A stretch of 64,000 nt of DNA from an uncultured Muribaculaceae bacterium. Its GTDB lineage: Bacteria; Bacteroidota; Bacteroidia; Bacteroidales; Muribaculaceae. The position numbers were made by a program, and so were the translations under genes. The stretch's first letter is position 1. The number at the start of each line of letters is the position of its first letter. Below, piece after piece: positions 3,737 to 62,324 of the stretch. Under the pieces are notes generated by a model. It was not told where the DNA came from, did not search any database, and saw only the letters and a program-made list of their open reading frames with translations. The stretch is taken from assembly GCA_964562375.1 (NCBI GenBank), contig CAZLSW010000001.1, forward strand, positions 32,871-96,870, read 5' to 3'.

Positions 3737-4363
3737 TTACTTGGGGTTAACCTTGAGGAGCTCCACGTCGAAGATAAGGGTGGCGTTGGGCGGGATAGCG
3801 CCGGGTGCTCCCTGAGGGCCGTAAGCGAGGTTGGAGGGGATGAACAGGCGCCACTTTGAGCCTTCGTTCATGAGTTGAAGGGCCTCAACCCACCCGGGGA
3901 TAACCTGGGTGACACCAAAGGTGGCCGGGATACCGCGGTCGACCGAGGAGTCGAATACTGTGCCGTCGATCAACTTGCCGGTGTAATGAACCTCCACCTT
4001 GTCAGTGGCTGTAGGCTTGGGGCCTTCGCCTTGGGTAATCACCTCGTACTGCAGACCGCTGGGAGTGGTCAACACGTCGACACGCTTGCCGTTCTCGGCG
4101 AGGAACTCCTCACCGGCTTTCTTGTTGACCTCGGCCATGCGAGCGGCCTCGGCTTCTTGTTCCTTTTGCATCTTCTCGAAGAAGGCTTGAATCTCTTTCT
4201 TGGCCTCGTCGTAGCTCATCTTGGGAGCCGAGCCGTAGAAAACAGCGGCCACGCCGTCGGCGAAGTCTTGGATGTTGATTTCCTTGATTCCCGAAGCACG
4301 GAAATTGTTGCCCATGGAAAGGCCCAGGGCATAAGAGATACGGTCGAGGGAATTGGTTTCCAT
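3737..4363 (-). CDS. FKBP-type peptidyl-prolyl cis-trans isomerase
   Basis: 208 aa with YTGKLIDGTVFDSS and LFIPSNLAYG motifs. Confidence 0.9.
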   Translation of the reverse strand: METNSLDRISYALGLSMGNNFRASGIKEINIQDFADGVAAVFYGSAPKMSYDEAKKEIQAFFEKMQKEQEAEAARMAEVNKKAGEEFLAENGKRVDVLTTPSGLQYEVITQGEGPKPTATDKVEVHYTGKLIDGTVFDSSVDRGIPATFGVTQVIPGWVEALQLMNEGSKWRLFIPSNLAYGPQGAPGAIPPNATLIFDVELLKVNPK

Positions 4364-6520: not shown

Positions 6521-6590
6521 CGTGCACTCGTTTATTTGTTTATTCGTGCATTCGACATAATCCATAAACTAGAAACTAGAAACTAGAAAC
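6521..6590 (+). repeat. Modular leader array upstream of leuS: 8-mers (CGTGCACT-type) then (AACTAGA)x3
   Basis: CGTGCACT CGTTTATT TGTTTATT CGTGCATT, then AACTAGA x3, ending 12 nt before the leuS ATG. Confidence 0.85.
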
Positions 6591-6601
6591 TTTCAACCCG
6601 A

Positions 6602-13043: not shown

Positions 13044-13183
13044 TGGTTAATGGTTAATGGTTAGTGGTTAGTGATTAGTGATTAAGTATGATAGTAAATA
13101 AGCTGAAAAGCCATTAAAAAATCAACTAACAACTAACAACTAACAACTAACAACTAACAACTAACAACTAACAACTAACAACT
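13041..13183. repeat. Two opposed heptamer arrays between convergent genes: (GGTTAAT/GGTTAGT/GATTAGT) and (AACTAAC)x8
   Basis: 13041-13086 carries GTTAATG/GTTAGTG-type units. 13123-13183 carries about 8.5 copies of AACTAAC. The arrays are partly complementary and the right one runs into the last codons of the WbqC-like ORF. Confidence 0.85.
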
Positions 13184-16102: not shown

Positions 16103-16648
16103 ATGGTAATCTCAATTTCACAATCTGAAATGCTGGTTCTGTGGCGCCAACTGCGCTATAATGAGCCTATTAGAAACGACGCCGCGGTAACCCGTGTGGA
16201 TGGTGTCGACCGCGACCGTCTCCACCAAGTGGAAATGCGCAACTGGTACCTCAATCTCCTGGCTACTGGTCATTTACGCTACCTGAAAATTAGCGATATC
16301 GCCACCCAGGTCGCCGTAACCGACATGGGCGACGGCACGGGTAGAGTGCTGTTGCCTGAGAAGTGTGTACGTCCACTGTGTGTTACCTTGGACGGCTGGG
16401 ATCGCTGCGCTCGGGTGGTGGAGCCCGATTCCCTAGAGGCTGAGATGCAGCTCAATGAATTCAGCCGGGGTAGAACGGTTGAGCCGGTGGCCGTGCATTA
16501 TCCGGGTCAACTGAGGCTATACTCCCTGGTCGATGGAGTAACGCCCAAGATCACATCCCTGCGCTGCGTCATGGAGCCCTCCGACGGCGTCTACGAGCTC
16601 GACGACAGCGCCCTATTAACCATTAACCCTTTAACCATTAACCATTAA
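16103..16648 (+). CDS. Hypothetical protein, first gene of the portal-like cluster
   Basis: 181-aa ORF ending 5 nt before the portal-like gene. The last codons are encoded by a (TTAACCA)n repeat. No family recognised. Confidence 0.5.
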   Translation: MVISISQSEMLVLWRQLRYNEPIRNDAAVTRVDGVDRDRLHQVEMRNWYLNLLATGHLRYLKISDIATQVAVTDMGDGTGRVLLPEKCVRPLCVTLDGWDRCARVVEPDSLEAEMQLNEFSRGRTVEPVAVHYPGQLRLYSLVDGVTPKITSLRCVMEPSDGVYELDDSALLTINPLTINH

Positions 16649-19465: not shown

Positions 19466-19566
19466 CAGGAGGTCCCGCCGTGTCGGCGGGACAGTTAGAC
19501 AAGAAGTCCCGCCGTGTCGGTGGGACAATAATTCTCTCGGGCCGACACGGCCCGACATCCTACTTG
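19466..19566. repeat. REP-like palindrome cluster (3 copies) downstream of asnS
   Basis: GTCCCGCCGTGTCGGCGGGAC, GTCCCGCCGTGTCGGTGGGAC and the inverted GGGCCGACACGGCCCGAC, with AGGA(A/G)GT / ACAG flanks. Confidence 0.9.
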
Positions 19567-21088: not shown

Positions 21089-22627
21089 TTATTCGAAGGA
21101 GCCCATTTTGAGGAAGTTAACCTCTTCCTGGGTGAGGTAACGCCAGCGGCCGCGGGGGAGGTTTTTCTTGGTCAGGCCCGCGAAGTACACGCGGTCGAGC
21201 TTGGTCACGTGGTAACCCAGCGACTCGAAGATACGGCGAACGACGCGATTGCGGCCCGAGTGGATCTCGATGCCCGCCTGGTTGCGGTCGGTCTCGGTGG
21301 CGTAGGAGATGGCGTCGGCGTGGATGGGGCCGTCGTCAAGCTCGATGCCGTCGGCGATACGCTGCATATCCTCCTCGGCGATGTCCTTGTCACACCATAC
21401 GTGGTAGATTTTCTTCTTCACGTATTTGGGGTGGGTGAGCTTGGAGGCCAGGTCACCGTCGTTGGTCAACAGCAGCACGCCGGTGGTGTTGCGGTCCAAG
21501 CGACCCACGGGGTAGATACGCTCGTTGCATGCGCCCTTCACCAGGTCCATAACCGTGGTGCGGCCGTTGGGGTCGTCGCTCGTGGTGACGCAATCCTTCG
21601 GTTTGTTAAGCAGGATGTAGCATTTGCTCTCCAGAGCCACCACCTTCTCATCGTATTCAACGACATCCGAGTGGGAGATCTTGGTACCCAGCTCGGTAAC
21701 AACGTTGCCGTTGACCTTCACCAAGCCCTGCTGGATGAACTCGTCGGCCTCGCGGCGCGAGCAGATACCGGCGTTGGCCATGAACTTGTTCAGACGAATC
21801 TGCTCATTGGGATCGGGTATCGGCATTTCGTACTCGATACGCTTGGGGCGCGGAGTGAAGCTCTTGCCGCGTGAGGGCATGAACCCTTGCTGACCCTGCT
21901 GGCGACGGTTGTTGTACCCGCCTTGCTGACGGTTGTTGTAGCCGCCCTGGCGGTTATTGTAACCACCCTGGCGGTTGTTGTTGTAGCCACCCTGACGGTT
22001 GTTGTTGTAGCCACCCTGGCGGTTGTTGTTGTAGCCGCCCTGACGGTTGTATCCGCCCTGTTGGCGATTCTGGCCTTGGTGACCGGGGTTGTTGTAACCG
22101 CCTTGGCGATTGTTGTATCCGCCCTGGCGATTGTTGTTGTAACCGCCTTGGCGGTTGTTATTGTATCCACCCTGCTGGCGAGGCTGGTAGCCGCCGGCGT
22201 TGGGACGCGGCTGGTAGCCTGTGTTGGGGCGGGGCTGGTAGCCTTGGGTTGGGGTAGCGCCGGCTGCGCCCTCGGCGGTCTCGCCTTCCTTGGCCTCGCC
22301 CTGGGGGGCGGCGGAGGGGGTACCGTAGGTGTTGGGACGCGGCTGATAGCCACCACCTTGGTAGTTATTGTTATAGCGATTGTAGCCCCCCTGCTGGCGA
22401 TTTTGGTAGCCTCCAGCGTTGTTGTAGCGGTTTTGGTAACCACCCTGTTGGCGTGGCTGATAGGGGCGCGGCTGGTAGGGGCGGTCGCCCGTGGGGGCGG
22501 CGTCGCTGTTGTGATCGTTCATTGAGCTGTAGCTCGACTTTTCATAGCGTGAGCCTTCGTGATCGTCGGCCACCGCACGGCTCTCGCCGATTCTGGGTCG
22601 TTTCCCTTTTTTGTCGTTACTTTCCAT
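21089..22627 (-). CDS. Pseudouridine synthase (RluB/RsuA family) with a roughly 250-aa N-terminal Gly/Tyr/Asn/Gln/Arg repeat region
   Basis: C-terminal half has an S4 domain (IRLNKFMANAGICSRREADEFI) and the catalytic VGRLDRNTTGVLLLTNDG. The N-terminal half is NRQGGYNN-type repeats. Confidence 0.88.
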   Translation of the reverse strand: MESNDKKGKRPRIGESRAVADDHEGSRYEKSSYSSMNDHNSDAAPTGDRPYQPRPYQPRQQGGYQNRYNNAGGYQNRQQGGYNRYNNNYQGGGYQPRPNTYGTPSAAPQGEAKEGETAEGAAGATPTQGYQPRPNTGYQPRPNAGGYQPRQQGGYNNNRQGGYNNNRQGGYNNRQGGYNNPGHQGQNRQQGGYNRQGGYNNNRQGGYNNNRQGGYNNNRQGGYNNRQGGYNNRQQGGYNNRRQQGQQGFMPSRGKSFTPRPKRIEYEMPIPDPNEQIRLNKFMANAGICSRREADEFIQQGLVKVNGNVVTELGTKISHSDVVEYDEKVVALESKCYILLNKPKDCVTTSDDPNGRTTVMDLVKGACNERIYPVGRLDRNTTGVLLLTNDGDLASKLTHPKYVKKKIYHVWCDKDIAEEDMQRIADGIELDDGPIHADAISYATETDRNQAGIEIHSGRNRVVRRIFESLGYHVTKLDRVYFAGLTKKNLPRGRWRYLTQEEVNFLKMGSFE

Positions 22628-25391: not shown

Positions 25392-25504
25392 CTTCTTCAC
25401 TTAATCCTTTACTCCTTTCCTCCTTTAAAGATTTAACGCCTTAAAGATTTAAAACTAGAAACTAGAAACTAGAAACTAGAAACTAGAAACTAGAAACTAG
25501 AAAC
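25392..25504. repeat. CCTTT-word block followed by (AACTAGA)x7
   Basis: TAATCCTTTACTCCTTTCCTCCTTTAAAG, then AACTAGA x7 (25453-25504), ending 2 nt before the stop of the ABC ATPase gene. Confidence 0.9.
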
Positions 25505-25506
25505 TC

Positions 25507-26787: not shown

Positions 26788-26925
26788 TAGTTTTTAGTTT
26801 TTAGTTTTTAGTTTTTAGTTTCTAGTTTCTAGTTTTAAAGCATTAAAGCATTAAAGCTTTAAAGGAGTAAAGGAGGAAAGGATCCATTTATAAGCCCCCG
26901 CTTCGGGGGTTTGGGGGCCGCTTTA
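26788..26925. repeat. Composite repeat: (TAGTTTT)x4-(TAGTTTC)x2, (AAAGCATT)x2, (AAAGGAGN)x3, then GC hairpin AAGCCCCCG-CTTC-GGGGG
   Basis: Read directly from the sequence. The AAAGGAGG...GGAT...TTATAAGCCCCCG.TTCGGGGG..TGGGGGCCG part recurs at 55030-55105. Confidence 0.9.
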
Positions 26926-31222: not shown

Positions 31223-31675
31223 ATGGCTCGATTTCAATGGCTCGCCGACGGGGTCAAGCTCCCGGAGCTCGACTACCCTCTGTTAGAAAAATGGATTGAC
31301 ACAGTGGTTGCGTCATTTCAACGCATCACTGGCCCCGTCACATATATTTTCTGCGACGACCCGAAAATCCTCCGAGTAAATCTCGAGTTCCTCCAGCACG
31401 ATTACTTCACCGACATTATCACCTTCGACTATTGCCGGGGCGCGCTCGTGCGTGGCGACATCTTCATCTCCCTCGACACCGTTGCCAGCAACGCCAAGCA
31501 GGTTGGCGCCCCTTACGACCAGGAATTGCGCCGCGTGATAATCCACGGTATACTCCACCTTTGCGGGATAGATGATAAAGGTCCTGGTGAACGCGAGATT
31601 ATGGAAGCCCACGAGAATCGTGCCTTGGCAATGCTTGATAATCTCGAAAAAACTACGGAAAGCGATGAAATTTAA
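31223..31675 (+). CDS. ybeY: rRNA maturation RNase YbeY
   Basis: HGILHLCGIDD metal-binding motif; 150 aa. Confidence 0.9.
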   Translation: MARFQWLADGVKLPELDYPLLEKWIDTVVASFQRITGPVTYIFCDDPKILRVNLEFLQHDYFTDIITFDYCRGALVRGDIFISLDTVASNAKQVGAPYDQELRRVIIHGILHLCGIDDKGPGEREIMEAHENRALAMLDNLEKTTESDEI

Positions 31676-33542
31676 TTACGATGTGATAGTGGTAGGCGCC
31701 GGGCATGCCGGTTGCGAGGCGGCAATGGCGGCTTCGCGGCTCGGCGCGTCAACGCTGTTGATCACTATCGACATGAACAAAATCGCCCAGATGAGCTGCA
31801 ACCCAGCCGTCGGGGGCATCGCCAAAGGCCAGATCGTGCGGGAAATCGACGCCATGGGTGGCCATATGGGAATCATCACCGACCGATCGGCGATACAGTT
31901 CCGTATGCTCAACCGCTCGAAAGGTCCGGCAATGTGGAGTCCGCGTTCGCAGTGCGACCGTATGAAATTCTCACTCCTTTGGCGACACACGCTCGAAAAC
32001 GCCCCTAACTTGTACATGTGGCAGGACAACGTCACCTCGCTGCTCATCGAGGATGGCAAGCTCGCGGGAGTAAAAACCGCCCTCGGTGTTGAGTTTCGCT
32101 CAAAGGCAGTTGTGCTTACCGCCGGCACTTTCCTCAACGGATTGATGCACGTGGGGCGCGCCCAGGTGAAAGGTGGCCGCGTGGCCGAGCCAGCTTCGCA
32201 CGGCATCACCGAACAGTTGCGCGACCTGGGTTTCGCCACCGACCGAATGAAGACCGGCACGCCTGTGCGCATCGACGCACGCTCGGTCGACTGGTCGCTC
32301 ACTACCGAGCAACTCGGCGACAACGATTTCCATAAATTCTCCTACCTCCCCGAGGTGCGACGTGAGTTGCGACAACTCCCATGCGCTATCGTATACACCA
32401 ACGAGCGCACCCACGATGTGCTGCGCGCAGGATTGCCCGACTCTCCTCTTTACAACGGCCAAATCCAGAGCATCGGTCCGCGCTACTGTCCCAGTATCGA
32501 AACAAAGATCGTCACCTTCGCCGACAAAACCGAGCATCAGCTCTTCCTCGAGCCGGAAGGCGAGGATACCCAAGAATACTACCTCAACGGCTTCTCATCG
32601 TCGCTTCCCCTGAAAGTGCAGATTGAAGCCTTGCAGACAATCCCCGCGCTGCGCGACGTACACATTTACCGTCCGGGTTACGCCATCGAATACGACTTCT
32701 TCGACCCGACCCAACTCTACCACACACTCGAAACCAAACTCCTCCCGGGACTCTTTTTCGCCGGTCAGGTCAACGGTACCACGGGATACGAAGAAGCCGC
32801 GGGCCAAGGCCTGGTGGCAGGTGCCAACGCCGCTTTGAAGGTGCAGGGTAGGGGGGAGTTCACCCTCTCCCGCGACGAAAGCTACATTGGAGTGCTTATC
32901 GACGACCTCGTCACCAAGGGGGTCGACGAGCCTTACCGAATGTTCACCTCACGCGCTGAGTACCGCATACTCCTACGCCAGGACGACGCCGCCATGCGCC
33001 TCACCCCAAAAGCCTACGCCGTCGGTCTGGTTGACGAGCGTCGCTACCAACTTACCGAACGCAAGCGCGCCCTGCGCGACTCCCTAATAGAATTTGCTCG
33101 CCGCTACTCAATCAAGGCGGCGCTGATCAACCCCGCGCTTGAGCAACTTGGCACCGCGCCCCTCACCCAAGGCACGCGCCTCTACGATCTGCTCCTGCGT
33201 CCTCAGTTATCCATCCCCGCGCTTGTCCCCCTTATCGACGCCCTCCGCCGCCGCGTGGAGGAGATTCCCAATGACCTGCGCGACGAAGTGGTGGAGTGCG
33301 CCGAAATCCTCATCAAGTACCAAGGTTACATCGACCGCGAGGCTCAAATCGCCCAAAAGCTGCGACGCCTCGAGGAGGTGAAACTCGGCGACCGTTTCGA
33401 CTACTCCACCATCCACCAGCTCTCCACCGAGGCCCGACAAAAGCTCGCGAAAATCCAGCCCGCGACCGTCGGACAAGCCTCCCGAATCCCCGGCATTTCC
33501 CCCAGCGACATAAACATCCTTCTGTTGCTGTTGGGACGCTAA
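31665..33542 (+). CDS. mnmG: tRNA uridine 5-carboxymethylaminomethyl modification enzyme MnmG (GidA)
   Basis: MKFNYDVIVVGAGHAGCEAA FAD fold; 625 aa. The ATG at 31665 overlaps the ybeY end; the ORF is open from 31572. Confidence 0.96.
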   Translation: MKFNYDVIVVGAGHAGCEAAMAASRLGASTLLITIDMNKIAQMSCNPAVGGIAKGQIVREIDAMGGHMGIITDRSAIQFRMLNRSKGPAMWSPRSQCDRMKFSLLWRHTLENAPNLYMWQDNVTSLLIEDGKLAGVKTALGVEFRSKAVVLTAGTFLNGLMHVGRAQVKGGRVAEPASHGITEQLRDLGFATDRMKTGTPVRIDARSVDWSLTTEQLGDNDFHKFSYLPEVRRELRQLPCAIVYTNERTHDVLRAGLPDSPLYNGQIQSIGPRYCPSIETKIVTFADKTEHQLFLEPEGEDTQEYYLNGFSSSLPLKVQIEALQTIPALRDVHIYRPGYAIEYDFFDPTQLYHTLETKLLPGLFFAGQVNGTTGYEEAAGQGLVAGANAALKVQGRGEFTLSRDESYIGVLIDDLVTKGVDEPYRMFTSRAEYRILLRQDDAAMRLTPKAYAVGLVDERRYQLTERKRALRDSLIEFARRYSIKAALINPALEQLGTAPLTQGTRLYDLLLRPQLSIPALVPLIDALRRRVEEIPNDLRDEVVECAEILIKYQGYIDREAQIAQKLRRLEEVKLGDRFDYSTIHQLSTEARQKLAKIQPATVGQASRIPGISPSDINILLLLLGR

Positions 33543-33632
33543 ATAGGAAGTCCCGCCAGCACGGCAGGACAGTAAAACAGGTCTCCTACAATAGGAGAAT
33601 GGAAGCCGGCTCGACCCGGCCCCGACAATAAA
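33543..33632. repeat. REP-like variant (GTCCCGCCAGCACGGCAGGAC) plus a second-family element directly after the mnmG stop
   Basis: The TAA stop of mnmG is followed by ATAGGAAGTCCCGCC.... ATGGAAGCCGGCTCGACCCGGCCCCGACAA matches 23644-23673. Confidence 0.8.
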
Positions 33633-33706: not shown

Positions 33707-33827
33707 CGTTTACTCGTTCATTCGTTTACTCGTTCATTCGTTAATTCGTATACTCGTGTACTCGTGTACTCGTTCACTCGAAAACCAAAAACCAAAAACC
33801 AAAAACTAGAAACTAGAAACTAGAAAC
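33707..33827 (+). repeat. Modular leader array upstream of apt: nine 8-mers (CGTTTACT/CGTTCATT/CGTGTACT), (AAAACCA)x3, (AACTAGA)x3
   Basis: Read directly. Same 8-mer-then-7-mer order as upstream of leuS and the acyl-CoA synthetase gene. Ends 16 nt before the apt ATG. Confidence 0.9.
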
Positions 33828-33842
33828 TTTAAAACTAAAATA

Positions 33843-34482: not shown

Positions 34483-34586
34483 CTGTCGGGCCGACACGGC
34501 CCGACCTCCTTCCTAAGCTAAGTAGGAGGTCCCGCCGTGTCGGCGGGACTGTTTTTCTGTCGGGCCGACACGGCCCGACTTCCTGT
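34483..34586. repeat. REP-like palindrome cluster (3 copies, alternating orientation)
   Basis: CTGTCGGGCCGACACGGCCCGACCTCCT, AGGAGGTCCCGCCGTGTCGGCGGGACTG and CTGTCGGGCCGACACGGCCCGACTTCCT. Confidence 0.92.
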
Positions 34587-40452: not shown

Positions 40453-40640
40453 TAAGTAGGACGTCAAGTAGGAAGTCGGGCCGTGTCGGCCCGACAGATC
40501 AGAAAGGAAGTCGGGCCGTGCCGCCCCGACAGATTAGAAAGGAAGTCGGGCCGTGTCGGCCCGACAAATTAGAAAGGAGGTCGGGCCGACACGGCCCGAC
40601 AACCAATTCCGTCCCGCCGACACGGCGGGACATCCTATTT
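40453..40640. repeat. REP-like palindrome cluster (5 copies, about 35-nt period)
   Basis: Three forward copies of AGGAAGTCGGGCCGTG(T/C)CGGCCCGACA spaced by ATCAGAA/ATTAGAA, then two inverted copies (…GCCGACACGGC…). Confidence 0.95.
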
Positions 40641-40804: not shown

Positions 40805-42247
40805 ATGGTTACAATTGCAGGTAAAAGGTTCAAAAAGCGCTGGATTATATTGTTTCTGGCGGCACTGGGCATCAGTGTTTTAGGTTTGTGCGTGAGTCCC
40901 GACGAGGGAAAATGGGACATGGCCAACGATAATCTGTACGCCAACATCGCCTGGATGATCACGGCCACGATTTTCGTGTTGATGATGACCCCGGGATTGT
41001 CGTTCTTCTACGGCGGAATGGTAAGGGCCAAGAACGTGATTTCCACCATGTTGCAGAGCTTTATCGTGATGGGTGTGGTGAGTGTGATTTGGATTGTTTT
41101 TGGCTTTGGACTGTCGTTTGGCGATGATATTTGGCACGTCATCGGCAATCCATGCGATTTCTTCATGTTTGAGAAAGTGGGAGTGGCGAATGTGACGGCT
41201 GCCGAGAGCGAGCGTGTGGCAACGTTGAGCCAGATCGACTTGGCGACGACCACGATTCCCTTGGCGTTGTTCGCTCTGTTCCAGATGAAATTCGCCATTA
41301 TTACGCCAAGCTTGATCACCGGCTCGTTTGCCGAGCGCGTGCGTTTCTCGGGCTATCTGGTGTTTATGATATTGTGGGTGGTGATTGTATATTGTCCTTT
41401 GGCCCATTGCACATGGCATCCCGAGGGGTTGTTTGCCAAGATGCACGTTCACGACTTCGCCGGTGGCATTGTGGTGCACGCGGCCTCGGGTATAGCGGCG
41501 TTGGCGGGTGCTATCTTCTTGGGACGGCGCGCCGACGTGAGCGACTCCAAACCGGCCAACGTGCCGTTCGTGCTTTTGGGCGCCGCTCTGCTGTGGCTGG
41601 GATGGTTCGGTTTCAACGGTGGTAGCTCCCTCGCTGCCGACGGAATCGCAATCTCGGCTTTCTTGAACACCAATACTGCGGCTGCCACGGCAATGGTCAC
41701 CTGGGTGGTATTTGATGCCCTACGTGGCCACAAACCCTCGGCGATGGGAGCCGCTATCGGCGCTGTTGTAGGCTTGGTGGCAATCACTCCCTGCGCCGGC
41801 TGGGTAACGGTGGGGCAGAGCGTGTTTATCGCTTTTGTGATCACGATATGCTGCAACTTGGCTGTGACGTGGAAGAACGCCCGCCACACGTTTGACGACG
41901 CTCTCGACGTGTTCCCCACACACGGCTTGGGAGGCATCCTCGGCACCGTGCTCACCGGTATTTTCGCCTACGATTTCTTTGCTCGCGAGGATCCCGAGAT
42001 GATCTCACGCACGGAATTTTTCTGGGCCCACATATTGGTACTGGTAATAGTGTTTGTGTACACGTTCGGCGTTAGCTACGGGCTTTATTGGCTCACCAAC
42101 AAGATGATACCGATGCGCGTGTCGCGTCGCAGCGAGATGATTGGCTTGGACAAGAGCCAGCACGACGAGGAATACGGCACCGAGGTGACGACCGAGTTGG
42201 CCGAGGACACCATCTCGGATAGCGACTGGTATCAATCAATGGAATAG
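40805..42247 (+). CDS. amt: Ammonium transporter
   Basis: 480-aa polytopic protein with DFAGGIVVHAASGIAALAGAI and WFGFNGGS motifs. Confidence 0.92.
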   Translation: MVTIAGKRFKKRWIILFLAALGISVLGLCVSPDEGKWDMANDNLYANIAWMITATIFVLMMTPGLSFFYGGMVRAKNVISTMLQSFIVMGVVSVIWIVFGFGLSFGDDIWHVIGNPCDFFMFEKVGVANVTAAESERVATLSQIDLATTTIPLALFALFQMKFAIITPSLITGSFAERVRFSGYLVFMILWVVIVYCPLAHCTWHPEGLFAKMHVHDFAGGIVVHAASGIAALAGAIFLGRRADVSDSKPANVPFVLLGAALLWLGWFGFNGGSSLAADGIAISAFLNTNTAAATAMVTWVVFDALRGHKPSAMGAAIGAVVGLVAITPCAGWVTVGQSVFIAFVITICCNLAVTWKNARHTFDDALDVFPTHGLGGILGTVLTGIFAYDFFAREDPEMISRTEFFWAHILVLVIVFVYTFGVSYGLYWLTNKMIPMRVSRRSEMIGLDKSQHDEEYGTEVTTELAEDTISDSDWYQSME

Positions 42248-43330
42248 TTAACAACTCTTTGGCTCACCCCTATACTGGTAGTGGTTGCGTAGTGATTCGA
42301 AGGCTTGCGGCCGGGCTTTTAGCTCGGCCGTATCCTTTCGGGGGTCGTAGCTGGCCAAAAGCGCCTCCACGCTCACAGTATCGGCCACAGGTGGTAGTTT
42401 AGGCAGGAAGTCGGGCCGTGTCGGCCCGACAGAAAGAAAGTCCCGCCGTGTCGGCCCGACAGAAAGGAAGTCCCGCCGTGTCGGCCCGACAGAAAGGAAG
42501 TGCTCCCTCACGGCGGCGACGGCTATCAGGGTAGCCCGTTGCTTGCCTTCCAGGGAGTAACCGGCTATATGCGGCGTGGCGATCTCGGCAAGCGACAATA
42601 ACCCGGGACTGATGTTAGGCTCTCCCTCCCAGCAGTCAATCGCGGCGCCAGTAATTTGGCCGCTCCGCAACGCCTCAACCAGTGCAGGCGTATCGACCAC
42701 TGGGCCGCGAGCCGCATTGAAAATCAGCGGTTTTTGCTCGCACTTGCCGAAGAAATCGGCATCGGCCATATGGAATGTTCGATCCTCGCCTTCGCGGGTG
42801 AGAGGCGTGTGGAAAGTTATCACGTTGGCTTCGCGAGCGATCTCGTCGAGCGTCACGAAACCCTCAGCGCCCTCCTCGCGAGCTCTTGGCGGGTCGCAGA
42901 GTAGCACCTTGATTCCCAATCCCTTGGCCCATCTTTGGACAATCTTGCCCACATGGCCCACGCCAACTATTCCCAAAACTGTGCCCTCGAGTGGGCGCAT
43001 GGCCATCAGCGACGTGAGCACCCACTGGGCCACGCCCGGAGCGTTGCAGCCAGGGGCGTTCCTCACCTCAATTCCACGCGACGCGCAATAGGGGAGGTCG
43101 ATATGGTCGGTGCCGATAGTCGCGGTCGCAATCATCTGGCAACGAGAGTGTTCCAGCAAGTTGGCGTTGCATTTCGTGCGTGTGCGGGTAACCAGCGCAT
43201 CGACGTCGCGCATCGCCTCCGGCGTGATTTCCTCGGCGGGGAGATACCTCACCTGGCCAAGGTCCTCAAGCATTCCTTGGATGAACGGGATGTTGGCCTC
43301 GACCACGATGTTTAAGCCGTGAGATTCCAT
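42248..43330 (-). CDS. pdxB: D-isomer-specific 2-hydroxyacid dehydrogenase, erythronate-4-phosphate dehydrogenase (PdxB)-like, carrying three in-frame repeat insertions
   Basis: GIVGVGHVGK NAD fold and ATPHIAGYS. Start at MESHGLNIVV (ATG 43330). FLSVGPTRRD x3 is encoded by REP-like copies. Confidence 0.75.
   Translation of the reverse strand: MESHGLNIVVEANIPFIQGMLEDLGQVRYLPAEEITPEAMRDVDALVTRTRTKCNANLLEHSRCQMIATATIGTDHIDLPYCASRGIEVRNAPGCNAPGVAQWVLTSLMAMRPLEGTVLGIVGVGHVGKIVQRWAKGLGIKVLLCDPPRAREEGAEGFVTLDEIAREANVITFHTPLTREGEDRTFHMADADFFGKCEQKPLIFNAARGPVVDTPALVEALRSGQITGAAIDCWEGEPNISPGLLSLAEIATPHIAGYSLEGKQRATLIAVAAVREHFLSVGPTRRDFLSVGPTRRDFLSVGPTRPDFLPKLPPVADTVSVEALLASYDPRKDTAELKARPQAFESLRNHYQYRGEPKSC
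42401..42500. repeat. Three tandem REP-like copies (30-nt period) inside the pdxB-like CDS
   Basis: Cores at 42410-42430, 42440-42460 and 42470-42490. The 30-nt period equals 10 codons and reads through as (F)LSVGPTR(R/P)D. Confidence 0.95.
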
Positions 43331-44292
43331 AGGTAAAGTGCTGAGTAAACGATGATTATCGTGAGTATGGGAATTGCCGAAGCACGGGTGCGGTGGGTGG
43401 CGAACAGGTGCCCGGCTTGGTAGGCCACTGCGCAATTGAGAAGCGGCACGTAAATGTAGGCCTGATAGAAGTCAAACACTGCCAGCAGGGCGGCTCCAAT
43501 CATCAGCACGGTCATGAATCCGTTGCAGGCGCGCGTGCGGGAATTATAGGAAAGGAAGCGGATGAAATTGCCCATCAAGCAAGTGATACCCAGCAGGATA
43601 GTCACGCCGATTGTGGCCACCAGTGGCACGATTTCGCCTGTGTTTAATTGGCTGAAGAAGTTGGTGAACGTGGGCAACGTGAAGTTACGGTAATCAATTA
43701 GACCGAATCCAATCAGAATCCACGCCGGGGTAATCATGCCCAGTAGCGCTGCCACGAAGGTGCGCCACGATAGCACGCGCATCTGCGCGCATCCAATCAA
43801 CGCGAGCGGTATTAAACCGATTGCCGCGTATTGCGTCATCGCCGTCAGGGCGATCAGGAAAAACGCCAAGAACACGCTGCGTGACTGTCCAGGCTGCCCA
43901 TAAACGTCGAACAGTATCGCCGCCACCACAATGGCCAGCAGAGCCAACAGAGTGCCTCCGTAGAAGCCCTCCATGAGGTCGGGAGTGGCCGCCTGGAGAA
44001 TCAGGAACAAGCCGGGGCCGAGCATCGACATGCCTCGCAACAGGTTGTAGGCGCGGTTGAGGTAAACCATCAGCAGAGCTATGGCCACGTTTACGGCGAA
44101 ATTAACCCCCAGCGAGATCCACCCCGCCGGAAGCCATTGGTTAGGCGACATCAACCCAAGGCCACGATTGACGTGCACGGCTTGCGCGGGATAGTTCTCG
44201 GCGGCGAACCATACGGCGGCCAAGGCCACCAGCATCAACACCGCGGCCCCAGCCCTATCGTGAAAAAACCTCGTCAGCGCCCCCTTCATCAT
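43312..44292 (-). CDS. Polytopic membrane protein of unknown function
   Basis: 326 aa with about 9 hydrophobic segments. Overlaps the pdxB-like start and the toxin stop. Confidence 0.6.
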   Translation of the reverse strand: MMKGALTRFFHDRAGAAVLMLVALAAVWFAAENYPAQAVHVNRGLGLMSPNQWLPAGWISLGVNFAVNVAIALLMVYLNRAYNLLRGMSMLGPGLFLILQAATPDLMEGFYGGTLLALLAIVVAAILFDVYGQPGQSRSVFLAFFLIALTAMTQYAAIGLIPLALIGCAQMRVLSWRTFVAALLGMITPAWILIGFGLIDYRNFTLPTFTNFFSQLNTGEIVPLVATIGVTILLGITCLMGNFIRFLSYNSRTRACNGFMTVLMIGAALLAVFDFYQAYIYVPLLNCAVAYQAGHLFATHRTRASAIPILTIIIVYSALYLWNLTA

Positions 44293-46240: not shown

Positions 46241-46405
46241 CAAGTAGGAAGTCGGGCCGTGCCGGCCCGACAGATAGAAAGGACGTCGGGCCGTGTCGGC
46301 CCGACAGATCAGAAAGGAAGTCGGGCCGTGCCGGCCCGACAGAAAACGTGTCCCGCCGGCACGGCGGGACATCCTACTTATAAAAGGGGACATCCTACTT
46401 ATAAA
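46241..46405. repeat. REP-like palindrome cluster (4 copies) plus a duplicated flank (GGACATCCTACTTATAAAAG x2)
   Basis: Three forward GTCGGGCCGTG(C/T)CGGCCCGAC copies and one GTCCCGCCGGCACGGCGGGAC. Confidence 0.95.
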
Positions 46406-49934: not shown

Positions 49935-50035
49935 ATCAAGCCACCGTGCCCCGCGGTCAGAAAGGAAGCCGGGCCGTGTCGGCCCGGCAGTATAAACAAG
50001 CCACCGTGCCCCGCGGTTTGCCGCGGTGGTCTTCC
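49935..50035. repeat. Nested composite: CCGCGG-type element interrupted by a REP-like copy, then a complete CCGCGG-type element
   Basis: CAAGCCACCGTGCCCCGCGG | TCAGAAAGGAAGCCGGGCCGTGTCGGCCCGGCAGTATAAA | CAAGCCACCGTGCCCCGCGGTTTGCCGCGGTGGTC. Confidence 0.85.
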
Positions 50036-50083
50036 CCCCAGTTCGATTTCCCTCGATTTCCCCCGATTTCAGTCGAAAAAATT

Positions 50084-51199
50084 ATGAAATATTCCCGCCT
50101 AGCCGTCAAAATCGGCTCCAACGTCCTCTCCCGCCCCGACGGCACCCTCGACATCACCCGAATGAGCGCCCTGGTCGACCAAGTGGCCGAGCTGCGTCGC
50201 ATGGGTCTCGACATCGTCATGATCTCATCGGGAGCAGTCGCCGCCGGCCGCTCCGAGCTCAGAAAGGATGTCGGGCCGTGTCGGCCCGACAGAGACACGC
50301 CAAAACCCCTCGACTCCGTCTCCCAGCGACAGCTCTTCTCAGCCGTCGGCCAAGCCAAATTAATCAACCGCTACTACGAGCTCTTCCGCGACCACGGCCT
50401 ATCCTGCGGCCAGGTCCTCACCACCAAAGAAAACTTCTCCACCCGCCGCCATTACCTCAACCAAAAGCACTGCATGGAGGTAATGCTCGCCGCTGGCGTC
50501 ATTCCTATCGTCAACGAAAACGACACCGTGTCGCTCACCGAACTGATGTTCACCGACAACGACGAGCTCTCGGGCCTGATCGCCGCCATGATGGGCATGG
50601 ACGTTTTGGTGATCCTAAGCAATATAGATGGTGTATACGACGGCGATCCCGCCGACCCGGAGTCGCGTCTTATCACCGACGTGGCTCCGGTTGACGACCC
50701 CACGCGCTACGTGCAAGCGGCCAAATCCTCGCTCGGCCGCGGGGGGATGGGCACCAAGATGCGCATCGCCCGCAAGGTGGCCTCCGAGGGCCTCGATGTG
50801 ATTATCGCCAACGGCAAACGCCCCAACATCCTCATCGACCTTATCTCGCGTGACGACACCCCCTGCACCGTCTTCCACGCCGCTGCCGTCGAGCCCTCGA
50901 GCGTTAAGAAATGGATTGCCCACAGCGAGGGATTCGCCAAGGGTGAGGTGCATGTCAACCAAGGCGCTGCCGACGCGCTCCTCTCAGGCACCGGCGCCAG
51001 CCTTTTGGCTGTAGGAGTTACCCGCATTGTGGGCGATTGGGAAAAGGACGACGTCGTGAAAGTAATCGCCCCCGATGGCCGCCAGATCGCCCTCGGCCGA
51101 GTCAGCTACTCCTCGTCCACTACTGCCAAGGTAATGGGCCGCACAGGCCAGCGCCCAGTAATCCACAGCGATTACCTCTACCTCGAAGGCTGCCCTTAA
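50084..51199 (+). CDS. proB: Glutamate 5-kinase (with PUA domain), carrying one in-frame repeat insertion
   Basis: VKIGSNVL, SSGAVAAG, AVGQAKL and a C-terminal PUA domain. Start at MKYSRLAV (ATG 50084). Confidence 0.92.
   Translation: MKYSRLAVKIGSNVLSRPDGTLDITRMSALVDQVAELRRMGLDIVMISSGAVAAGRSELRKDVGPCRPDRDTPKPLDSVSQRQLFSAVGQAKLINRYYELFRDHGLSCGQVLTTKENFSTRRHYLNQKHCMEVMLAAGVIPIVNENDTVSLTELMFTDNDELSGLIAAMMGMDVLVILSNIDGVYDGDPADPESRLITDVAPVDDPTRYVQAAKSSLGRGGMGTKMRIARKVASEGLDVIIANGKRPNILIDLISRDDTPCTVFHAAAVEPSSVKKWIAHSEGFAKGEVHVNQGAADALLSGTGASLLAVGVTRIVGDWEKDDVVKVIAPDGRQIALGRVSYSSSTTAKVMGRTGQRPVIHSDYLYLEGCP
50261..50295. repeat. REP-like copy inside the proB CDS
   Basis: AGAAAGGATGTCGGGCCGTGTCGGCCCGACAGAG, read through as RKDVGPCRPDR between SSGAVAAGRSEL and the AVGQ region. 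Confidence 0.95.
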
Positions 51200-51227: not shown

Positions 51228-52412
51228 TTATAGCTTTAAGGCTTTAAGGCTGAGGCGATCCACCAGCGTCGCCAGCGCGCAATCCCCCGTGACGTTACAC
51301 GCCGTCCCGAAATTATCCATCGCGATATACAACGCGATCATCAACGCATTCATCTCCTCGGTAAAGCCAAGGATTGACGACAAGATGCCCAATGAAGCCA
51401 TAATCGCGCCGCCTGGGATACCCGGCGCGGCCACAATCGCTATACCCAGCATCGCGGCCAGTTGCAGGAACATCCCCGCGTCGTAGGGCACGCCCTGGTA
51501 AATCATCAACGCCAGCGCGCACGCCACGATTTTCAGTGCCGAGCCGCTCATGTGGATTGTCGCGCATAGGGGGATAACAAAACCCGCCACGCTCTCGTTG
51601 ACACCCGTCTTGATTGTCTGCTTCAGCGTCACTGGTATCGTGGCGGCTGAGCTCTGCGTGCCCAGCGCGGTCATATACGCCGGAAGCATCGTGCGCAGCA
51701 TCTTCAGCGGATTCCGCTTGGCGGCCGCTCCCGCGATGCTGTATTGCAGCAACAAGATGCCGATATGAAGCACGAAAATCACCGCGATCACCTTCACGAA
51801 CGTCTGCAGGATCGCTCCCACCTGCCCCTCCATGGTCATCGTAAGGAAGATTCCGAAGATGTACACCGGCAGCAACGGGATTATCACGCCGCGGATGGTC
51901 AAGTCGATGATGTCGCGAAATTGTCGGGCCGCTTTGCTCAGACCGTCAGCGTGGGTGTAAGCTATGCCGATGCCCACGGTGAACGACAGCACAAGCGCGG
52001 TCATCACCCCCATCGGCGCCGGTATCTCCACCGTGAACCACGGCTTAGAAAGGATGTCGGGCCGTGTCGGTCCGACAGTATAGGCCCCCTCAGGTGAAAT
52101 GATATCCGGGAAAATCGCCGCGCCGGTAAAATATGAAATCGCGCCCGCGAGGAACGTCGCCGAATAGGCAAGCACCACGGTTGTTAGCAGCATCTTGCCG
52201 GCACCGCGCCCGATGTCGCCGATTGCCGGCGTGACAAAGCCGATGATAATCAGCGGAATAAGGAACCCCAGGAACTGGCCGAAAATACCGTTGAATGTGG
52301 CGCACAGAGCCGCCAACCACCCCGGCGCCACCATTCCCGCGCCTATTCCCAGCGCGATAGCTATTATAATGCGGGGAAGCAACCCCATCTTGGTTAACGC
52401 TTTGAAACTCAT
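51228..52412 (-). CDS. Sodium:dicarboxylate/amino-acid symporter family transporter (SstT-like), carrying one in-frame repeat insertion
   Basis: Polytopic protein with PLCATIHMSGSAL and AAPGIPGGAIMA motifs. Start at MSFKALTK (ATG 52412); the longer ORF to 52493 only translates repeat DNA. Confidence 0.85.
   Translation of the reverse strand: MSFKALTKMGLLPRIIIAIALGIGAGMVAPGWLAALCATFNGIFGQFLGFLIPLIIIGFVTPAIGDIGRGAGKMLLTTVVLAYSATFLAGAISYFTGAAIFPDIISPEGAYTVGPTRPDILSKPWFTVEIPAPMGVMTALVLSFTVGIGIAYTHADGLSKAARQFRDIIDLTIRGVIIPLLPVYIFGIFLTMTMEGQVGAILQTFVKVIAVIFVLHIGILLLQYSIAGAAAKRNPLKMLRTMLPAYMTALGTQSSAATIPVTLKQTIKTGVNESVAGFVIPLCATIHMSGSALKIVACALALMIYQGVPYDAGMFLQLAAMLGIAIVAAPGIPGGAIMASLGILSSILGFTEEMNALMIALYIAMDNFGTACNVTGDCALATLVDRLSLKALKL
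52047..52080. repeat. REP-like copy inside the transporter CDS
   Basis: AGAAAGGATGTCGGGCCGTGTCGGTCCGACAGTA, read through on the minus strand as TVGPTRPDILS. Confidence 0.95.
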
Positions 52413-52450: not shown

Positions 52451-52562
52451 CTAAGTAAGTAGGAAGTCCCGCCGTGCCGGCGGGACAGCTCAAGTAGGAA
52501 GTCCCGCCGTGCCGGCGGGACAGTTTTCTCTGGCGGGCCGTGCCGGCCCGCCTTCCTTTCTA
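52451..52562. repeat. REP-like palindrome cluster (3 copies) upstream of the transporter
   Basis: Two AAGTAGGAAGTCCCGCCGTGCCGGCGGGACAG copies and one GGCGGGCCGTGCCGGCCCGCC variant. Confidence 0.92.
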
Positions 52563-52796: not shown

Positions 52797-53300
52797 ATGG
52801 GCTCCTCTAAATTCCAATCCAATCTCATGAAGCTGCAAAGCAATATGCTCAACTTCGCTTATATGCTTACCGCCAACCGCGACGACGCTTACGACCTCCT
52901 CCAGGACACCACCCTCAAAGCTCTCGACAACGAAGAGAAGTACATCGACAACACCAACTTCAAAGGCTGGGTGTTCACCATCATGCGCAACATCTTCATC
53001 AACAATTACCGCCGCGTGGCCCGCGCAGCCACTGTTGTCGACTCCACCGAAAACCTCTACCACCTGAATCTCTCCCAGGATTCAGGCTTGGAAACTCCCG
53101 AAGGCGCCTTTGGCGCCAAGGAGATCACTCAATACCTGAGCGAGTTTCCCGACGAATATCGCGTTCCTTTCTCGATGCACGTCGCCGGCTACAAGTACAA
53201 CGAGATCGCCGAGAAGATGAACCTCCCCCTTGGCACCGTCAAGAGCCGCATCTTCTTCGCCCGCCAGCGCCTCCAGAAGCGTTTCGCCGATTACCGCTAA
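52797..53300 (+). CDS. RNA polymerase sigma-70 factor, ECF subfamily
   Basis: Region 2 (DLLQDTTLKAL...GWVFTIMRNIFINNYRR) and region 4 (YNEIAEKMNLPLGTVKSRIFFARQRL). No adjacent anti-sigma gene. Confidence 0.9.
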   Translation: MGSSKFQSNLMKLQSNMLNFAYMLTANRDDAYDLLQDTTLKALDNEEKYIDNTNFKGWVFTIMRNIFINNYRRVARAATVVDSTENLYHLNLSQDSGLETPEGAFGAKEITQYLSEFPDEYRVPFSMHVAGYKYNEIAEKMNLPLGTVKSRIFFARQRLQKRFADYR

Positions 53301-53445
53301 GTAGGAGGTCCCGCCGTGCCGGCGCCCCAGCTTAAGTAGGAAGTCCCGCCGTGCCGGCGCCCCAGCTTAAGTAGGAAGCTGGGCCGTGTCGGCCCAGCAG
53401 TATCAACAAGCCACTGTGCCCCGCGGTTTGCCGCGGTGGTCTCCT
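53298..53445. repeat. REP-like cluster (3 copies) plus a CCGCGG-type element, starting on the sigma-factor stop codon
   Basis: TAAGTAGGAGGTCCCGCCGTGCCGGCGCCCCAGC x2, then AGGAAGCTGGGCCGTGTCGGCCCAGCAG and CAAGCCACTGTGCCCCGCGGTTTGCCGCGGTGGTC. Confidence 0.92.
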
Positions 53446-56428: not shown

Positions 56429-57307
56429 ATGGCATTGAAACGCAACGCATTAGGGCGAGGCCTTGACTCGCTAATACCAATGGACGACGTGCCCGCCGCC
56501 GGCACGACGGCTATAAACACCGTGCCACTAAGCCAAATCTCGCCCAATCCCGATCAACCTCGCCAGACATTCGCCCAGGATGCTCTGGACGACTTGACGC
56601 GCTCGATCACAACGTATGGCGTGCTTCAGCCCATTTCCCTGAGGCAAGTTGGCCCCTCAAGCTACCAGATAATCGCTGGTGAGCGTCGCTATCGTGCCGC
56701 TTTGGCCGCAGGTCTGCGCGAGATCCCCGCATATATACGCGACGCCAACGAGCAAGAGCTCACCGAGATGGCTCTAATCGAGAACATCCAGCGCGAGGAT
56801 CTCAACCCCATCGAAATCGCCCTTACCTACAACAAGCTCATCGACCAATATCACCTCACCCAGGAGCAGCTTTCGGAACGCATCGGCAAAAGTCGAGCTG
56901 TGATCGCCAACGCGTTGCGCATGCTTCGCCTGCACGCTGATGTGCAATTGGCCCTGAGCGAGAGGCGATTGACCGAGGGACATGCCCGCGCTATTCTAAG
57001 GTTGGACGACCACCAGATGCAGAATAAACTGTTCCATCGTATCCTGGCCGAGGACCTGAGCGTGCGCCGCGCCGAAGAGCTTGCCAAAGAGATGCTCGAG
57101 GGGGTGGAAATAACCCCCAAGAAACCCACGCTAAAACGCGAAAAAAACCGCCTTTTCGACGAATTGAAGCAAAACCTCTCCGCCCGCTTTTCCGCTCCCG
57201 TCCAGCTCCATTGCGACGCCAACGGAAAAGGCCGCATTACCTTCTCCTTCCGCGACCAAGAGCAGCTCACCCGCCTGATCGCCCTCTTCGACCAAATCCA
57301 AGGCTAA
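56429..57307 (+). CDS. parB: Chromosome partitioning protein ParB (Spo0J)
   Basis: GERRYRAA box and an HTH region; 292 aa. Starts 2 nt after parA. Confidence 0.95.
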   Translation: MALKRNALGRGLDSLIPMDDVPAAGTTAINTVPLSQISPNPDQPRQTFAQDALDDLTRSITTYGVLQPISLRQVGPSSYQIIAGERRYRAALAAGLREIPAYIRDANEQELTEMALIENIQREDLNPIEIALTYNKLIDQYHLTQEQLSERIGKSRAVIANALRMLRLHADVQLALSERRLTEGHARAILRLDDHQMQNKLFHRILAEDLSVRRAEELAKEMLEGVEITPKKPTLKREKNRLFDELKQNLSARFSAPVQLHCDANGKGRITFSFRDQEQLTRLIALFDQIQG

Positions 57308-57358
57308 GTAGGAAGTCCCGCCGTTAAGTAGGAAGTCCCGCCGTGCCGGCGGGACAGC
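57305..57358. repeat. REP-like copies (one truncated, one full) starting on the parB stop codon
   Basis: TAAGTAGGAAGTCCCGCCGT | TAAGTAGGAAGTCCCGCCGTGCCGGCGGGACAG. Confidence 0.92.
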
Positions 57359-57370
57359 TCCTCCCCTCGG

Positions 57371-57500
57371 GCTCGACTTCCCTCGATTTAAGTCGATTTA
57401 AATCGATTTAAGTCGAAAGAAATCGAGAGAAATCGAGAGAAATCGAAAGAAATCGAGAGAAGTCGAAAGAAATCGAAAAAAATCGATATAAATCCGCGTG
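57371..57500. repeat. Thirteen-unit 10-nt tandem array (AAATCGAGAG / AAATCGAAAG / AAGTCGATTT types)
   Basis: Strict 10-nt period with a phased A-tract and TCGA in each unit, between convergent parB and the beta-helix lipoprotein gene. Confidence 0.92.
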
Positions 57501-61453: not shown

Positions 61454-61495
61454 GCTAAACGCTAAACGCTAAATGCTAAATGCTAAACGCTAAAC
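61454..61495. repeat. Heptanucleotide tandem repeat (GCTAAAY)x6
   Basis: Six consecutive units ending 6 nt before the stop of the ferritin-like gene. Confidence 0.92.
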
Positions 61496-61500
61496 GCTTC

Positions 61501-62069: not shown

Positions 62070-62196
62070 AAGTTTATAGTTTCTTGTTTATAGTTTCTAG
62101 TTTCTAGTTTCTAGTTTCGCTAAATTGAATATTCACCGCTTTTCACCCCTTGAGCTATTAACTAGAAACTAGAAACTAGAAACTAGAAACTATAAA
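62070..62196. repeat. Inverted heptamer arrays (TAGTTTC)n ... (AACTAGA)n in a divergent promoter region
   Basis: The left array 62091-62118 (TAGTTTC x4) is the reverse complement of the right array 62160-62190. A 41-nt spacer separates them. Confidence 0.9.
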
Positions 62197-62324
62197 CCCC
62201 AAAACTTGGCCGCATCGCGAAAAACGCGTATCTTTGGGCCGTGAAAGGGCTAAGGCCGCATGATTGTGTTGAATATAACTCAATTCTACCCTTAAATATA
62301 CCAACATTAAACACGATAACCCGC

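Follow-up and report, generated by a model that had tools for sequence, protein, structure and literature searches.

How does a palindromic repeat come to be translated inside the gene of a metabolic enzyme, and what does it do to the enzyme? The question is raised by a stretch of DNA from an uncultured Muribaculaceae bacterium (assembly GCA_964562375.1, contig CAZLSW010000001.1, positions 32,871 to 96,870; 64,000 nucleotides, here called the window), in which pdxB, the gene for 4-phosphoerythronate dehydrogenase of vitamin B6 synthesis, is read without a stop through three tandem hairpin units. We assign these units to a family of repetitive extragenic palindromic (REP)-like elements dispersed in the window, because their tag and core are identical to those of intergenic units. 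We consider it highly probable that a lineage-specific, GTAG-tagged REP-like repeat became fixed within the coding sequence of pdxB and that the three units are its tandem array. We infer that REP insertion or recombination was followed by tandem duplication, and that the array is translated into a near-neutral peptide.

An in-frame repeat array in an apparently intact pdxB gene

The pdxB gene lies on the minus strand (42248..43330) and encodes 360 amino acids, starting with MESHGL. It was identified from its open reading frame (ORF; 42248-43435, first ATG at 43330, stop at 42248) together with Pfam, NCBIfam and PDB matches. Pfam assigns residues 32-277 to 2-Hacid_dh (PF00389) and 2-Hacid_dh_C (PF02826), and residues 323-358 to DUF3410 (PF11890), the C-terminal dimerization domain, the latter with 28.8 bits and below the cut-off of 31.4. 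Among solved structures, the PdxB enzymes of Salmonella, Vibrio and Pseudomonas are the closest (PDB 3oet, E-value of 2.8e-67), and the source records of the 8000 homologues name 4-phosphoerythronate dehydrogenase.

The array occupies 42398..42499 on the minus strand, as delimited by Tandem Repeats Finder, by alignment with the intergenic units and by the confidence profile of a structure model. A first-pass annotation of this DNA had placed repeat cores at 42410, 42440 and 42470 with a period of 30 nt, and both the core pattern and Tandem Repeats Finder (42405-42501, period 30, 3.2 copies, 94% matches, score 173) agree. The ORF runs through them as ...AVREHF-LSVGPTRRDF-LSVGPTRRDF-LSVGPTRPDF-LPKLPPVADTV... 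(AVREHFLSVGPTRRDFLSVGPTRRDFLSVGPTRPDFLPKLPPVADTV); mapping of codons to DNA assigns 42398-42496 to the REP-derived residues 279-311, that is, (LSVGPTRRDF)x2, LSVGPTRPDF and LPK, and the last 3 nt of the array are the native, invariant F278 codon. The claim that the frame stays open through the repeats is thus correct, as is their placement between the catalytic domain (residues 32-277) and the C-terminal domain (323-358).

The core of copy 1 (42410..42430) is a type-A palindrome, GTCGGGCCG-TGT-CGGCCCGAC, with a perfect 9-bp stem and a predicted hairpin of -18.5 kcal/mol (folding z-score of -5.4). Its tag, TTTAGGCAGGAA at 42398-42409, matches the tag of intergenic unit 34559 at 10 of 12 positions. 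Copy 2 (42440..42460) is a hybrid with the type-B left arm GTCCCGCCG, TGT and the type-A right arm CGGCCCGAC, and copy 3 (42470..42490) is the same hybrid, GTCCCGCCG-TGT-CGGCCCGAC. Each carries two stem mismatches, which leaves hairpins of -9.9 kcal/mol with z-scores of -1.5 (copy 2) and -1.0 (copy 3); the full array folds with a z-score of -5.4. The first-pass annotation had recognized the hybrids and their two broken pairs, and both arm types do occur elsewhere in the window. The broken stems themselves are not peculiar to pdxB, however, as the right arm is degenerate in the intergenic units at 53308 and 53343, too. What is confined to copies 2 and 3 within the window is the combination of a type-B left with a type-A right arm.

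Is the gene then a functional one? The NCBIfam equivalog model for PdxB, NF001309, matches residues 6-357 in one stretch, which speaks against the possibility, raised earlier, that the gene is really two ORFs. All columns that are invariant in an alignment of the window protein with 15 orthologues (16 sequences) are retained in the window PdxB on either side of the array, the C-terminal Y328...R354-x-E356 block among them. Because of the full-length PdxB match and the retention of every residue invariant among the orthologues, we judge pdxB from its sequence to be intact, neither split nor decayed. The NF001309 score of 380 bits does fall short of the curated cut-off of 434, as one might expect if pdxB were inactivated, a pseudogene in the making whose open frame is coincidental. 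A random insertion of 90-100 nt keeps the frame one time in three; here all 360 codons are unbroken, the invariant columns are kept even in the C-terminal domain downstream of the array, and the AlphaFold2 model is confident outside the linker. We therefore give next to no credence to a pseudogene.

The dispersed REP-like family

Where does the repeat come from? The family comprises 29 units at 12 loci, 9 of them intergenic and 3 genic (3/12 loci, 5/29 units); these counts cover the 64-kb window and not the whole genome. When all copies are turned to one orientation, each unit consists of a tag, a core and AG; the tag of first units reads AAGTAGGAA and that of internal units AGAAAGGAA. The core, GTCSSGCCG-TGY-CGGSSSGAC, is 21 nt long and has a 9-bp stem and a 3-nt loop. 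Its pattern matches the window 27-38 times (both strands), compared with 0 matches in 100 dinucleotide-preserving shuffles. Two stem types prevail, type A (GTCGGGCCG/CGGCCCGAC) and type B (GTCCCGCCG/CGGCGGGAC); rarer stems are GCCGGGCCG/CGGCCCGGC, GCTGGGCCG/CGGCCCAGC and GGCGGGCCG/CGGCCCGCC, and nearly all stem types are self-complementary.

The hairpin is supported by compensatory changes in the stem. Across the 29 units, 95.4% of the cells are paired, and in 4 of the 9 pairs both partners have changed (24 such cells), a covariation that none of 500 shuffles equaled. Perfect units are predicted to fold with -18 to -20 kcal/mol (z-scores of -3.8 to -5.7), and stems are imperfect in 6 of the 24 intergenic units. 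The GTAG tag, in the form AAGTAGGA placed 3 nt before the stem, is present in 11 of the 29 units; in its place, GAAAGGA or CAGGAA is found in the internal units of arrays and in every genic unit. All six frames of the core are free of stop codons.

The family appears to be specific to this lineage, as judged from sequence searches. We found no REP-like core in 81 pdxB loci of other species and no known RNA family at the REP-like units in an Rfam scan of the window. A search of JGI metagenomes with tag plus core gave 0 matches; a looser core pattern matched at least 120 contigs from unrelated environmental sources, once each, and these look like chance or unrelated hairpins. A 72-aa composite of the REP peptides found no match among 5.8 billion proteins and missed even the window PdxB itself, probably owing to repeat or composition filtering. 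A clustered regularly interspaced short palindromic repeat (CRISPR) array was rejected, as the spacers are constant and the units dispersed. Because the family is lineage specific, related loci could not date the insertion into pdxB.

The pdxB array differs from the intergenic arrays in its dimensions. It has a 30-nt period with 9-nt spacers, whereas in all five intergenic arrays the units recur every 34-35 nt with spacers of 13-14 nt. The array in pdxB is therefore no wholesale copy of an intergenic array. The same comparison bears on the possibility that the array, or its copy number, arose by collapse or mis-joining in a short-read metagenome assembly. REP-rich genomes are prone to such errors, and the exact window PdxB protein is found on one contig alone. 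A mis-join with an intergenic array would, however, have imported the 34-35-nt period and the 13-14-nt spacers in place of the 9-nt spacer. Nor would an artefact be expected to yield a private hybrid core, a frame-preserving period and flanks that are collinear with the orthologues on both sides. The frame is also kept by the units in two further genes, and an analogous in-frame array exists in a sister species, on 3 contigs (both described below). Taken with these observations, an assembly artefact seems very unlikely.

Single units inside proB and an SDF-family transporter gene

Is pdxB the only gene that is read through the repeat? One unit (50260..50292, plus strand) lies in frame in proB (50084-51199, plus strand), the gene for glutamate 5-kinase, and reads RKDVGPCRPDR; the product has the Pfam domains AA_kinase and PUA. 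The unit is absent from the orthologues of sister species that are 89-91% identical, and Muribaculaceae glutamate 5-kinases are shorter at this position by exactly 11 residues (33 nt, one unit). The product also has extra residues compared with the E. coli enzyme (2j5t). In a separate observation, the glutamate 5-kinase entries P0123-P0126 and P0186 from ENA (430-507 aa) contain internal duplications of whole domains that are unrelated to the REP family and are probably artefacts of assembly or gene calling.

Another single unit (52045..52081, minus strand) reads YTVGPTRPDILSK in frame in the gene for an SDF-family transporter (51228-52412, minus strand; Pfam SDF). It has one stem mismatch and a predicted hairpin of -12.5 kcal/mol, and it falls in a loop that is variable in the orthologues. 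Compared with these, the protein gains just 2 residues net; hence, native sequence was displaced.

All three genic loci keep the domains of their host and the frame, the latter having a chance of about 1 in 27, and all three are read in the same codon register, GTC-GGG-CCG-NNN-CGG-SSS-GAC. Since the core is palindromic, this register yields VGP(T/C)R(P/R)D on either strand; it reads VGPCRPD in proB and VGPTRPD in the transporter. By our own calculation, chance would produce a shared register with a probability of about 1 in 9, given that the core is open in six frames. In the orientation found in proB, the GTAG form of the tag would place TAG in frame; the genic units carry GAAAGGA or CAGGAA.

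The PdxB linker in orthologues and sister species

What did the array replace? In Bacteroidales PdxB orthologues (55-60% identity, 332-348 aa), 11-12 residues separate F278 from the PPVA motif, compared with 35 in the window protein. As the REP-derived residues 279-311 fill this gap, the native linker appears to have been replaced and not merely extended, with a net gain of about 23 residues. An insertion of exactly 30 extra residues, which the first-pass annotation had led us to look for, is not what we find: about 33 REP-derived residues displace a linker of 11-12. The REP-derived peptide itself is absent from the orthologues.

The insert is rich in glycine, proline, arginine and aspartate, and a disordered loop is predicted for it, which fits the idea that it would form a surface loop. 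In an AlphaFold2 model built from the 16-sequence alignment (mean predicted local distance difference test [pLDDT] of 84, predicted template modeling score of 0.81), residues 282-308 have a pLDDT below 50 and form a coil between the helices 260-280 and 321-327. A long linker is compatible with the PdxB fold, because enterobacterial PdxB (378-381 aa) has about 30 more residues in the linker region than Bacteroidales PdxB, and gammaproteobacterial PdxB has a naturally longer linker at the site of the array. The enzymes of Salmonella and Pseudomonas (PDB 3oet and 2o4c) share with the window protein the catalytic, NAD-binding and C-terminal dimerization domains and a linker; they differ in that the Bacteroidales linker is normally much shorter and that, in the window, REP DNA supplies its sequence.

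Three proteins that are 81-82% identical to the window PdxB (P0002, P0003 and P0004) all have an expanded linker of a different sequence. Within this clade of four (81-100% identity), the linkers measure 24-45 residues, compared with 11-12 in other Bacteroidales, and represent three unrelated sequences. P0002 (370 aa; locus L081, Logan SRR15219682) contains two tandem 42-nt units of 14 codons, GTCGACCCGGGAGCGGATTTCCGAGGGTCGACCCGAGGGGGG, at positions 3153-3236 of L081; these form perfect 10-bp hairpins, and the protein is present on 3 contigs. P0003 (locus L002) and P0004 (locus L001) have nonrepeated linkers of 24-27 residues, each with a hairpin and a folding z-score of about -2.4, and the one in L002 (about 3853-3882) reads GACCGCTG-CCCT-CAGCGGTC. 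The short Muribaculaceae linker has no hairpin (z-score of +0.7). The window repeat itself is absent from L081, L002 and L001.

We considered whether these linkers are decayed copies of the window repeat. In local alignments against shuffles, the L081 linker gave a p value of about 0.012 before correction for 12 tests, which does not establish a relationship, and the linkers of L001 and L002 were not significant. Outside its pdxB gene, L002 carries a private, unrelated intergenic repeat of 38 nt (473-585; three copies with 100% identity, TGTCGCGGGCGAGGGCGCCCACGCTCCTTGTTTGCTAT), and it seems that every species of the clade carries a private repeat family. On these sequences, the PdxB linker is a permissive and possibly recurrent site for palindromic DNA in the clade. 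A similar case is that of two Xanthomonas species, whose recB genes carry different REPs at roughly the same position (PMC3733652).

Could the repeat peptide have been selected as a longer, flexible and charged linker that tunes the dimerization or domain movement of PdxB, with REP DNA serving as raw material? The expansion in all four members of the clade would fit, as would the long linkers of gammaproteobacterial PdxB and the single frame used by all three genic REPs, giving VGP(T/C)R(P/R)D. However, the linker sequence is not conserved even among the sister species and is predicted to be disordered, and a shared frame is expected by chance about once in nine cases. We regard such selection as unlikely; most likely, the REP-derived peptide is a tolerated passenger without a function of its own.

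Predicted hairpins in the transcripts

The palindromes might act as nucleic acid instead, with a hairpin co-opted for terminating or attenuating transcription, for stabilizing the mRNA or for pacing translation between the domains. The neighborhood of pdxB gives some reason to consider this. The convergent ORF on the plus strand (40805..42247), which is ammonium transporter-like by translation alone, ends with a stop codon that abuts the stop codon of pdxB; the spacer is zero and therefore leaves no room for a terminator. The gene order around this pair is kept in L001 and L002. Minus-strand REP units are hairpins with a T-rich tail, CTTCCTTTCT, and are flagged as terminator-like, and the folding z-score of the whole pdxB array (-5.4) would also suit a structured RNA. 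On the plus strand, on which the convergent gene is read, AGAAAGGAA follows the units and there is no T run, however, and a terminator for that gene was rejected on this ground. Intergenic REP arrays are also found between divergent genes, where a terminator role is impossible, and the sister species have unrelated sequences at the pdxB site.

A pattern among the genic units counts in favor of a co-opted hairpin. In the sense of the pdxB and transporter mRNAs, a REP unit is a hairpin followed by CUUCCUUUCU, which a simple scan reports as terminator-like. The stems are weakened in all three genic units that have the CUUCCUUUCU tail; the two perfect genic hairpins, copy 1 of pdxB (followed by CUUCCUGCC) and the proB unit, which has the other orientation, lack it. 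Five genic units are too few to carry an argument for co-option, which we hold to be distinctly improbable. We speculate that the stems of copies 2 and 3 have been weakened because strong hairpins with a U-rich tail in the mRNA are selected against.

Intergenic loci of the family and other repeats

The nine intergenic loci show the same units in varied arrangements. A trimer at 19472..19556 was read from the unit alignment as B(+) B(+) A(-), and another, A(-) B(+) A(-), lies between convergent genes at 34485..34579. A lone degenerate type-B unit with 2 stem mismatches (33550..33570) begins 8 nt past the end of ORF 31572-33542. The array at 40475..40631 has three direct type-A units with a 35-nt period, followed by an inverted A and an inverted B unit, and that at 46251..46370 has three direct type-A units (periods of 34 and 35 nt) along with one inverted B unit. 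Upstream of proB, a lone unit on the plus strand (49968..49988) has the compensated stem GCCGGGCCG/CGGCCCGGC. The array at 52466..52552 combines two type-B units (35-nt period) with one GGCGGGCCG/CGGCCCGCC variant; on the plus strand, that at 53308..53398 combines two identical units, which have the degenerate right arm CGGCGCCCC, with one GCTGGGCCG/CGGCCCAGC variant. The last locus (57305..57355, plus strand) is a lone type-B unit with its core at 57335 and a 20-nt partial duplication of tag and left arm (57305-57344).

Two of these loci show local duplication of already mutated units outside genes, as the units at 53308 and 53343 share the degenerate arm and 57305-57344 is a partial copy. 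At both, the gene end abuts the repeat without a spacer: the stop TAA of an ECF sigma factor gene (53298-53300) forms the first bases of the REP tag TAAGTAGGA/TAAGTAGGAA, and the stop TAA of parB (57305-57307) the first three bases of the tag TAAGTAGGAA. Two ORFs are bracketed by repeat loci, those for the ECF sigma factor and a phosphoribosyltransferase.

A second module, CAAGCCACYGTGCCCCGCGGT(TTGCCGCGGTGG), stands after AGTATMAA behind REP units at 49937-49957, 49999-50030 and 53408-53430. At 49937 and 49999, it is a 21-nt direct repeat flanking a REP unit, and the module may be a composite element or the footprint of a duplication.

The window contains further tandem repeats. Intergenic arrays of 7-nt units with a stop codon on one strand (AAACTAG, CAACTAA, TAGTTTT, GCTAAAC, ATTAACC, TGGTTAA and AGTTGTT) are located at 1450-1487, 6566-6591, 13044-13183, 16615-16648, 25452-25505, 26788-26836, 33781-33840, 61454-61498 and 62071-62197, and at 3415-3444 of L081. 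With a period of 7 nt, the stop falls in each of the three frames. The arrays frequently lie next to arrays of 8-nt units, TCGTTTAC and TTAAAGCA. Tandem repeats of 10 nt of the TCGATTT/TCGAAAG type, with up to 8 copies, are found in the spacer between parB and the next gene (57383-57494) and upstream of proB (50043-50070). A 24-nt (8-codon) repeat with about 11 copies (21906-22254) in a 512-aa ORF (21089-22627, minus strand) is unrelated to the REP family and would encode a low-complexity segment rich in N, Q, G and Y (about NRQGGYNN).

Discussion

How, then, may the array have arisen? The family most likely spread by a REP-associated tyrosine transposase (RAYT) and/or by recombination and slippage, as other REPs and REPINs do. 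One unit would have landed in the short linker between the catalytic, NAD-binding body of PdxB and the C-terminal dimerization domain, replacing the linker and being trimmed to a register of 30 nt or 10 codons, and local tandem duplication would then have amplified it. The simplest explanation for the hybrid core is recombination inside the 11 nt common to types A and B (GCCG-TGT-CGGC); such an A/B unit would have been duplicated later to give the identical copies 2 and 3. We propose that the array persisted because its core is open in six frames, its period is a multiple of three and its site is a flexible surface linker. The enzyme would then be made with 33 REP-derived residues as a disordered linker.

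Several observations weigh against this reading. The one known source of the window PdxB is a contig from a metagenome-assembled genome, and the array rests on that assembly. Pfam found no transposase among the ten ORFs of the window that lie near or contain repeats; 8 belong to housekeeping families and 2 had no match. The linkers of L001 and L002 have no significant similarity to the window repeat by local alignment against shuffles. A simple terminator scan still flags the weakened pdxB copies as terminator-like, and the idea of selection against hairpins rests on five genic units.

The first-pass annotation had likened the array to the Rickettsia palindromic elements (RPEs), the classic case of in-frame palindromic inserts (PMC10969869). 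The analogy holds in that both are in-frame palindromes within intact ORFs: RPEs occur in many unrelated housekeeping genes and add peptide segments where fold and function allow (Ogata et al., as summarized in PMC10969869 and PMC3733652). It does not extend to their size and makeup. RPEs are about 100-150 bp long, have their own conserved peptide, form the families RPE-1 to RPE-10 and belong to an obligate intracellular alphaproteobacterium, whereas the window unit measures 30-35 nt, is tandemly amplified and has no evident sequence relationship to them. The window repeat acts like an RPE but is not a member of that group.

The intragenic GTAG/CGTC REPs surveyed by Di Nocera et al. (2013; PMC3733652) are the closer precedent. 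In that survey, such REPs lie inside ORFs in several phyla, with examples from Opitutus terrae, Thauera and Xanthomonas and the RPE-4/6 of Rickettsia conorii; over half occur as dimers or groups of units that encode 20-30 residues, and there are clusters that encode 43-82 residues. The surveyed elements resemble those of the window in many respects: they are GC-rich stem-loops of 20-40 bp with a GTAG tag and compensated stem subfamilies, they are mostly intergenic, their tags often provide the stop codons of flanking genes, a minority lies wholly within ORFs as singles, dimers or clusters coding for 20-82 residues, and different REPs can occupy nearly the same site of a gene in related species. 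There are also differences. The host of the window repeats is a member of the Bacteroidales, whereas the survey reports GTAG repeats from Proteobacteria, Cyanobacteria, Chloroflexi and the PVC group and, for Bacteroidetes, CGTC repeats alone. In the window, GAA (3 nt) separates GTAG from the stem, internal and genic units have GAAAGGA or CAGGAA in place of GTAG, arrays are mostly head-to-tail, which is rare in the survey, and the targets are metabolic and transport genes and not DNA repair genes.

REPIN/RAYT systems and the bacterial interspersed mosaic element (BIME) arrays of E. coli likewise consist of dispersed hairpin repeats in arrays, with inverted pairs of two stem subtypes, and inverted pairs are present in the window (46320+/46350- and 34485-/34529+). 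REPINs are typically inverted doublets, however, whereas direct tandem arrays dominate the window, and none of the ten ORFs scanned near the repeats is a RAYT; RAYT subclasses 2.4 and 2.6 are known in Bacteroidetes (PMC6006769). Overall, the window repeats appear to show the properties of the GTAG-tagged REP elements that Di Nocera et al. described.

In the literature that we searched, there is no description of translated REPs in Bacteroidota or Bacteroidales. Events of this kind have been described before in other phyla; hence, the pdxB array is a further instance in a new lineage, which extends known biology and does not change it. It is modestly notable for the density of genic copies (3 of 12 loci, 5 of 29 units) and for a PdxB linker that has been rebuilt by different palindromic repeats in sister species. 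We entertain the possibility, with more doubt than confidence, that this lineage undergoes a Rickettsia-like decoration of its whole proteome by a very short REP family, three of whose 12 loci already lie in housekeeping genes and share one register. The PdxB linker may then be a recurrent site of landing or turnover, rebuilt independently by different REP families in sister species (30 nt three times in the window, 42 nt twice in L081 and single hairpins in L001 and L002). If so, it would be a natural system for watching noncoding repeats turn into protein sequence.

In summary, the array in pdxB presents a mobile or duplicative noncoding hairpin repeat that would have become protein sequence in a free-living, probably gut-associated member of the Bacteroidales. 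The selective filter on such events appears to be readable in the sequence, in the period of 30 rather than 34-35 nt, the single register, the placement in loops and the weakened stems. The finding is also a warning for annotation, as REP-rich metagenome-assembled genomes hold genuine genes with repeat-derived inserts, which ought not to be annotated as pseudogenes or split ORFs.

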